Source: Escherichia coli
GTDB lineage: Bacteria; Pseudomonadota; Gammaproteobacteria; Enterobacterales; Enterobacteriaceae
NCBI RefSeq assembly: GCF_002854065.1
Contig: NZ_CP024151.1
Direction: 5' to 3' (one strand)
Length of the DNA stretch: 64,000 nucleotides
This document shows positions 14,364 to 15,313 of the stretch, piece after piece. Positions within the stretch are counted from its first letter, which is position 1, and the number at the start of each line of letters is the position of its first letter. The translations under genes were made by a program, and so were the position numbers. Under the pieces are notes generated by a model, which saw nothing but the letters and a program-made list of their open reading frames with translations, was not told the origin of the DNA and searched no databases.

Positions 14364-15313
14364 TTAAAACGTGTACTTCAGGCCGGCCGTCGTAATGAAG
14401 TTGTAATTTTCAATTCCAGCCCCGTTATTATTATGCTCCGAAGTATTATCACTACGGTCGTAAAGAGATGTATCCCCTTTTTTATTTGTGAGACGACTCC
14501 ATACACCCTCGATGTACACTTTTGCCTCTGGGGTAATATAGTAACCGGCATTAACTGCAACAGAATAGTAATTCTGGTTTATTACTTTGCTTCGGAATGT
14601 AGTTTGTCTTACATAATGCTCATCATTATCAGATCCCCTGACCCACCCGCTGTATTTAAATGCACCACCAAACTCAAAATTATCGTAACGGTAGTTTCCT
14701 GTCAGACCGACATAAGGAATTTTAAAATGTTGTTTATAACCAATCACTTTTATTTTATCAGGTAACGCTCCCGTTTCATTCCGGAAACCACCATTCTCAC
14801 TGTAAATATAAGTTCCTCCTGTAGCATTAAAACTGTAACGGCTTTCCTGATAACCTGCCATAATAGCAAGGCGATAATCAGATTCTTTTAAAAACCAGCC
14901 TTTAACGTTCAAATCAAATTCGTTGGCATAATTAAGACGTGTATCAGGATGCCTGCTTTCATCTGTCCATGTTCCGGGAGTCCCGGAATCCATCCAGTCC
15001 TGATCAACCATATCCCCCCCCCCCGACTATTGAGAGTGGTCCAGCCAGCTGCACCAACAGATAACCATGGATTCAGCTCCCAGTTAACGGCGCCTTTAAG
15101 AATGGCGGCGTTACTGTATTTCCAGTCCAGTTGGCTGACTTTACGTCCACCTTCTTCAGGCTCATAAACCCGTTCTTTTGTTTTGCCACTCAGTGTACCT
15201 AAATTAATCTCTGTACTTATTTTCTCCGGGCCGAAGAAATCAGAAGCAGAAGCTTCCTGAGAACTGAATACCACAGGTGCTGCAAGAATAATTGCCAGAA
15301 GCTTAGTTTGCAT
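14364..15313 (-). pseudogene. ompT: Plasmid-borne omptin (OmpT-family outer-membrane protease) interrupted by a frameshift in an 11-nt homopolymer
   Basis: Two overlapping ORFs (14909-15313 and 14364-15011) together match OmpT end to end (MQTKLLAIILAAP...SRGGG / MVDQDWMDSGTPGTWTDESRHPD...AGLKYTF); the frame changes at C11 on the plus strand (15014-15024). Confidence 0.8.

Follow-up and report, generated by a model that had tools for sequence, protein, structure and literature searches.

When a plasmid-borne protease gene is found split within a long homopolymer, is the broken frame a sequencing error, a dead gene, or one state of a tract that keeps changing? We address this question for a copy of the omptin gene ompP in a 64,000-nucleotide stretch of Escherichia coli DNA (contig NZ_CP024151.1 of RefSeq assembly GCF_002854065.1), hereafter called the window. 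Here, 11 C residues on the plus strand, at positions 15014 to 15024, form a run of 11 G residues (G11) on the coding minus strand and put ompP out of frame. On the evidence presented below, we consider it quite probable that this out-of-frame allele is genuine and heritable and that it arose by slipped-strand mispairing in a hypervariable coding poly-G tract.

Under the mechanism that we propose, slipped-strand mispairing at the coding poly-G tract would add or remove G residues far faster than changes arise at neighboring sites. Tracts of G9 or G12 (or of G8 with the F-type AAT codon) would yield full-length OmpP, and with tracts of G10, G11, or G13 translation would stop ahead of the catalytic residues, giving a null allele. 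The window would then hold an OFF copy that could regain its frame through one slip, either of +1 (to G12) or of −2 (to G9), and the tract would act on plasmids of incompatibility group F (IncF) as a switch by which mutation turns a surface protease ON or OFF. Mononucleotide runs are known hot spots for insertions and deletions (indels), and reversible frameshifts underlie contingency loci (PMC10710837, PMC11868660).

Reading frame and gene identity

The sequence-only reading, made from the letters of the window, had described two open reading frames (ORFs) separated by one frame change in the C11 run, and the letters and the ORF list bear this out. The window holds no uninterrupted ompP frame; G11 splits the gene into ORFs of 134 and 215 amino acids (aa) (Table 1). 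The 134-aa ORF reads ...AAGWTTLNSRGGG and is thereafter out of frame (IWLIRTGW...), its tail past the frame change running ...TTLNSRGGGIWLIR.... Editing of the tract in silico gave a single 315-aa ORF with G9 (RGGD) and a 316-aa ORF with G12 (RGGGD), as that reading had foreseen; that is, the frame is restored by a change of −2 or of +1. The name that it gave to the gene, ompT, has to be corrected. The gene is ompP, known from the F plasmid, where it encodes an outer membrane protease of the omptin family, and is neither the chromosomal ompT nor a ColV-type ompTp/arlC. It shares 99.4% nucleotide identity with ompP of F (NC_002483), and the NCBI Prokaryotic Genome Annotation Pipeline (PGAP) annotates it as ompP.

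Once repaired (G12), the protein reaches 608.9 bits with the omptin model NF008222, for which the curated cut-off is 537, with residues 1 to 316 matching model positions 1 to 317; the two fragments cover model positions 1 to 101 and 101 to 317. The full length of the repaired protein can also be aligned with OmpT in structure 1I78 (E = 8e-149), at an offset of 20 residues, which places the residues coded by the tract at Arg77-Gly78-Gly79-(Asn/Asp80) in OmpT numbering. The catalytic residues of OmpT are Asp83/Asp85 and Asp210/His212. The tract is three residues ahead of the first pair, the equivalent Asp codons lying at 15003 to 15005 and 14997 to 14999, and the equivalents of the second pair lie further downstream; both motifs (...NMVDQDW... 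and ...SDNDEHY...) are conserved relative to 1I78. Because the tract precedes all four catalytic residues and an out-of-frame copy retains a native stub of 99 residues, we infer that such copies are null alleles. The G12 form, which has one additional Gly beside the active-site strand, may be active.

Within the window, the tract is the longest homopolymer and the sole G/C run longer than 7 nucleotides (nt). Chance alone could nonetheless produce such a run, since 6 of 100 dinucleotide-preserving shuffles yield as many G9 matches; the tract owes its significance to the comparative data.

Authenticity of the G11 tract

Homopolymers as long as this one are error-prone, and error-prone contigs in the Logan collection miscount both this tract and other runs. 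The sequence-only reading had accordingly offered a homopolymer sequencing error as its alternative, in which the true tract of the isolate would be G9 or G12. The comparisons lend this no support. G11 recurs in three complete plasmids that are 100% identical to the window over the gene and come from unrelated sources, namely p886Rt_hybrid (human, Shenzhen), pDETEC81 (intensive care unit swab, Guangzhou), and p1916D18-2 (swine, Henan), and it recurs in several clean short-read assemblies. Among these, p886Rt_hybrid is the sole complete plasmid to share the ISKpn26 insertion found upstream of ompP in the window. No single PLSDB record matches the window over 25 kb; the window is therefore an independent assembly. 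Over approximately 25 kb it shows zero indels relative to its relatives outside the tract, its A7, A8, and T7 runs included. It differs from pDETEC81 by one single-nucleotide polymorphism (SNP) in 15.4 kb and matches three plasmids at 100% over 8.4 kb.

The exact 134-aa product was found on 72 contigs in 108 index blocks (NCBI, ENA, and Logan). In the four draft or Logan contigs with this product that were retrieved, the DNA reads G11, with no further indel in 3.2 to 3.5 kb. We regard a miscall in the window as very unlikely.

Tract length among plasmids

The sequence-only reading had proposed comparison with related plasmids as a check. The run is present in them, and its length differs between near-identical plasmids, spanning 7 to 13 in public records. 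The F plasmid has G8 followed by AATATG (RGGN, in frame), UK cattle plasmids have G9 followed by ATATG (RGGD, in frame), and a Shigella wastewater plasmid has G10. The tract is G12 (RGGGD) and in frame in pPM4-5-103k, where it is annotated as an intact OmpP (WP_149546669.1), and G13 in p626A1-123K; these two plasmids share a 13.8-kb backbone with the window in which the tract is the sole difference. The sequencing runs SRR27315123 and SRR27315083, which have adjacent accession numbers, differ in tract length (G11 and G13, respectively), and so do SRR16894926 and SRR16894824 (G11 and G9, respectively).

DNA was examined for 45 contigs of the sub-lineage to which the window belongs (I9, described below) and for approximately 40 contigs with other alleles. 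Contigs with extra 1-nt deletions at other homopolymers were discarded. Such deletions, at A6 (reference positions 937 to 942), G6 (2041), and A7 (2282), mark error-prone Logan contigs (L093 to L102, L056, and L061). In clean contigs, these other homopolymers of the 3.5-kb region (A6, G6, and A7) never vary. Two candidate variants were rejected in this way. A class with G6 followed by AAT, seen solely in Logan (22 contigs), carries further 1-nt deletions at the A6, G6, and A7 runs and is read-error noise. Contigs L056 (G10) and L061 (G13) had appeared to form a sub-lineage with a private in-frame deletion; gapped alignment shows a 1-nt deletion in the A6 run, and they were discarded because that deletion recurs in clearly error-prone contigs.

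The other haplotypes also vary, with G8, G9, and G10 in D-type alleles and G7, G8, and G9 before AAT in F-type alleles. A 133-aa product, found on 95 contigs, arises from both G7 followed by AAT and G8 followed by AT. In all 45 clean OFF alleles with a complete gene, a change of tract length alone restores a product of 314 to 317 aa; none has a second lesion.

The F128 plasmid of the K-12 laboratory strain C3026 (contig L009; NZ_CP014273.1) has G7 followed by AAT and is frameshifted. DHB4 (match H79) and BE104 (match H80) give the same 998-base match length as C3026, in which alone the letters of the tract were read. The F′ strains of the DHB4/C3026 lineage and BE104 thus probably lack OmpP through a G7 frameshift. 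A separate series of contigs (L084 and L088 to L092, from runs SRR11040608 to SRR11040623) has G9 followed by AAT, an F-type +1 allele with a product ending in RGGEYG, and is otherwise clean; the series probably represents one strain or experiment with a frameshifted F ompP.

The frame change might instead be read through, if transcriptional slippage or −1 ribosomal frameshifting on the G run yielded full-length OmpP from G11. RNA polymerase can slip on long homopolymers, and glycyl-tRNA can re-pair on G runs. Transcriptional slippage is, however, less favored on G/C runs than on A/T runs, and the canonical −1 slippery heptamers do not include G GGG GGG. Most ompP copies are moreover in frame, with G8 followed by AAT on at least 1000 contigs, G9 on 859, and 12 of 12 matches in metagenomes. 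Because the out-of-frame state is not conserved, we rank recoding low and consider it extremely improbable.

Origin of the run

In chromosomal ompT, the codons of the motif SRGGN are AGC CGA GGT GGC AAT and form no run. In ompP, G at three synonymous third positions (CGG GGG GGG) produces G8. An A-to-G substitution (N100D) extends G8 to G9, the substituted base being the 3′-most G of the tract, at 15014. Asn100 is ancestral, since OmpT has Asn at this position. Tracts of at least G10 that are followed by AT appear only after N100D. The series from G8 to G9 by point mutation, and on to G10 through G13, offers a natural example of a coding run crossing its instability length.

The I9 sub-lineage

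The sub-lineage of the window is marked by a signal peptide substitution, M9I (codon 9, ATG to ATT, with the third base at 15287). The protein collection holds no protein that combines I9 with Asn100, which indicates that M9I arose after N100D. Look-ups of the exact I9 products found G9 on 9 contigs, G10 on 14, G11 on 72, G12 on 13, and G13 on 7, and nothing at G8, G14, or G15.

Three configurations upstream of ompP were used as rare-event markers within I9, namely no insertion sequence (IS), IS2 at −267, and ISKpn26 at −106. The clean contigs without an IS have G9 (four contigs) or G12 (one). Those with IS2 at −267 have G9 (two), G10 (four), G11 (six), G12 (eight), or G13 (four), and those with ISKpn26 at −106 have G9 (one), G11 (two, the window and p886Rt_hybrid), or G12 (one). 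If every IS insertion occurred once, this distribution would need at least 7 independent tract changes. By parsimony, and as a rough minimum, the tract would have changed roughly three orders of magnitude more per site than its flanks. The retained I9 contigs have no indel outside the tract over 1.1 to 3.5 kb, except for contig L054, in which a divergent segment downstream contains a single insertion of 5 nt; this contig was kept as a probable real variant.

The tract was also assessed as a contingency locus. The window tract (G11) reaches the length of 9 or more that is used as the cut-off for mononucleotide repeats in an ORF or promoter (bioRxiv 10.1101/2025.09.12.675794), and F-type G8 lies below it. 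Length varies among close relatives within lineages, from G9 to G13 on one gene haplotype, and repeat number alone repairs every OFF allele (45/45). The slipped-strand switch put forward in the sequence-only reading therefore stands in its comparative part, with lengths of 7 to 13, several lengths per IS background, and all 45 OFF alleles repairable. For its other part, we infer both slippage as the mechanism and loss of function in the OFF state from sequence.

Switch or decaying gene

Several observations weigh against a switch. Out-of-frame G11 is the commonest I9 state (72 of 115 contigs), the I9 contigs show no excess of in-frame lengths and no sign of selection for the in-frame state, and two IS elements lie close upstream of ompP. 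A dominant OFF state and upstream IS elements fit relaxed selection on ompP equally well as they fit a switch, and the tract may be a mutational liability in a weakly selected gene rather than an evolved switch. A DNA scan of metagenomes returned 12 matches, all G8 followed by AAT or G9 and none from the I9 sub-lineage; it serves as a baseline and has no bearing on G11. The count of independent events would be lower if tract alleles had been transferred from one IS background to another by recombination between plasmids. The contig counts of frameshift products in the protein collection also contain some noise from error-prone Logan assemblies. Outside I9, the dominance of in-frame G8 and G9 fits purifying selection on shorter, more stable tracts.

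Taken to its end, relaxed selection would make the window copy a terminal pseudogene, with ompP function lost in an IS-riddled lineage, the tract drifting neutrally, and the in-frame copies accidental. The I9 contig counts agree with this, as does the presence of IS2 and ISKpn26 267 and 106 bp upstream. PGAP calls the gene a pseudogene, and ompP is absent in 58 uropathogenic E. coli isolates and hence dispensable in many hosts (PMC6854850). The clean OFF alleles, however, include none with a second lesion (0/45), and the promoter-like site and PhoP-box-like repeat upstream are intact. The absence of decay is a weak argument either way, as the lineage is young (0 to 1 SNP per 14 to 15 kb). G12 is in frame and cannot be ancestral; it is found with each of the three IS backgrounds and in several assemblies that are independent of one another. 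We therefore judge a terminal pseudogene unlikely, though more probable than a miscall or recoding.

Upstream region and neighborhood

The features of the locus are listed in Table 1. As far as can be read from its sequence, the sole lesion of ompP in the window is its frame. The PhoP-box-like repeat, TGTTTAGCTTTTGTTTA, is perfect and is the sole match in the window; none of 100 shuffles gives any. PhoP-dependent expression of ompP, with a conserved reverse-strand PhoP box in the ompP promoter, has been reported (bioRxiv 10.1101/2020.02.28.965145). The ISKpn26 insertion is common only to p886Rt_hybrid and a few short contigs that reach 20 to 30 nt into the IS end (L043 and L052). In relatives, IS2 is located 267 bp upstream of ompP.

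Table 1. Features at and upstream of ompP in the window
Feature	Position	Strand	Description
ompP, frameshifted OFF allele	14364..15313	−	Intact apart from the tract; identical copies annotated by PGAP as "ompP, frameshifted"
C-terminal ORF	14364..15011	−	215 aa, beginning MVDQDWMDS; holds all four catalytic residues
N-terminal ORF	14909..15313	−	134 aa; signal peptide and 99 native residues, then 35 out-of-frame residues
Poly-G tract	15014..15024	−	G11; codes for the Gly residues that follow Arg97 in the OmpP precursor
Sigma-70 promoter-like site, TTGACT-16-AAGAAT	15353..15380	−	About 40 nt upstream of the ompP ATG; retained; consensus match only
PhoP-box-like direct repeat, TGTTTA-N5-TGTTTA	15397..15413	+ (opposite ompP)	6 bp from the IS junction; retained
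ISKpn26 (IS5 family)	15420..16614	−	106 bp upstream of the ompP ATG; transposase ORF at 15566..16546 (−)
IS2 remnant	16619..17908		Truncated on the ISKpn26 side; approximate boundaries

In the window, ompP has an alpha/beta hydrolase gene downstream and an AIDA-like autotransporter gene upstream, with IncFIB RepB encoded nearby. Three I9 contigs (L035, L054, and L060) have a block of 31 to 32 mismatches in the downstream hydrolase gene (equivalent to window positions ~12772 to 14271), which suggests recombination with a divergent plasmid allele. The 5-nt insertion of L054 splits the hydrolase ORF.

Two ISKpn26 copies (15420 to 16614 and 22512 to 23710), which are 99.9% identical and inverted, lie on either side of a segment that holds the IS2 remnant and the gene for the AIDA-like autotransporter. 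The first copy is flanked by CTAA and TTAA, with no target-site duplication. In p886Rt_hybrid, 197 bp lie between ISKpn26 and IS2 that are lacking in the window. Together, these flanks and the missing 197 bp suggest an IS-adjacent deletion or recombination event. Further away, window positions 1 to 10000 are 100% identical to pDETEC81, the annotation of which lists IS26, a complete vapBC toxin-antitoxin pair and a second vapB, an AAA ATPase, and IncFIB RepB (10013 to 10990). Taken over its whole length, the window is a mosaic in which different blocks are shared with different plasmids.

Comparison with known systems

The closest reference is OmpP of the F plasmid (OMPP_ECOLI, WP_001193612.1), which shares with the window the gene and its neighborhood; the downstream frame of the window retains the catalytic residues, and the PhoP-box-like repeat precedes the gene, in line with what has been published on ompP. 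The two differ in that F has G8 followed by AAT, in frame, whereas the window has N100D and G11, out of frame, together with M9I, the upstream ISKpn26, and the IS2 remnant. Chromosomal OmpT (1I78) is homologous over its full length and has the identical local motif SRGGNMVDQDW, but its gene, with codons CGA GGT GGC AAT, offers no homopolymer or slippage substrate.

Among loci known to switch, rmpA of Klebsiella pneumoniae virulence plasmids, the repeat-mediated phase variation of which affects mucoidy, is the nearest parallel. It too is a plasmid-borne gene of the Enterobacteriaceae with a coding poly-G tract, of approximately 10 to 11 (bioRxiv 10.1101/2025.09.12.675794); in both, truncations are repaired by a change of repeat length, and lengths vary inside lineages instead of one allele having spread clonally. 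Read from sequence, ompP shows all three in silico features applied to rmpA, namely a tract of at least 9, repair by repeat change, and within-lineage heterogeneity. For rmpA, however, reversible switching, its frequency, and its phenotypes have been shown by experiment, while ompP is known from comparative sequence alone. The rmpA tract is also reported as conserved in all lineages, whereas that of ompP is ancestrally G8 and exceeds 9 only after a point mutation.

The classical contingency loci of Neisseria, Haemophilus, Campylobacter, and Helicobacter likewise have G/C runs in the coding sequence of surface protein genes, near the 5′ third, where slipped-strand mispairing gives ON and OFF states (PMC11868660, PMC10710837). 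E. coli differs from these organisms in avoiding simple sequence repeats (SSRs) as a species, long mononucleotide runs being generally selected against (PMC3315296), and in having working mismatch repair. For these two reasons, the switching rate of ompP is probably lower than that of the classical loci.

Implications

The ompP tract is a slippage-prone homopolymer in a surface protein gene, here on IncF plasmids of E. coli. In most records checked, "frameshifted" ompP genes on IncF plasmids represent real states of a hypervariable tract and not assembly errors. Since the frameshifted copies are mostly real, screens for gene presence say little about protease expression. Contig counts of frameshift products need a quality filter at the DNA level because of error-prone Logan assemblies. 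The probable lack of OmpP in the F′ strains is relevant to work in which cleavage of recombinant proteins by omptins is to be avoided.

More tentatively, and with doubt outweighing confidence, IncF plasmids may carry a contingency locus of their own. N100D would have pushed ompP past its instability threshold, and the plasmids would seed their hosts with OmpP-ON and OmpP-OFF cells, a form of bet-hedging over a PhoP-regulated protease that cleaves antimicrobial peptides. Cationic peptides that OmpP cleaves include protamine and C18G. On this view, OmpP may in addition process the AIDA-like autotransporter, the gene of which neighbors ompP.

A literature search, with subscription journals mostly outside its scope, found no report that ties ompP or other omptins to homopolymers, frameshifts, or phase variation. 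If the more tentative reading, that of a contingency locus, is true, ompP would be the first omptin to vary in phase through a repeat, and one of the rare instances of this mechanism in E. coli. The species is considered poor in repeat-based switches, and a plasmid-borne poly-G toggle would be an unusual, mobile source of heterogeneity in it, parallel to rmpA.
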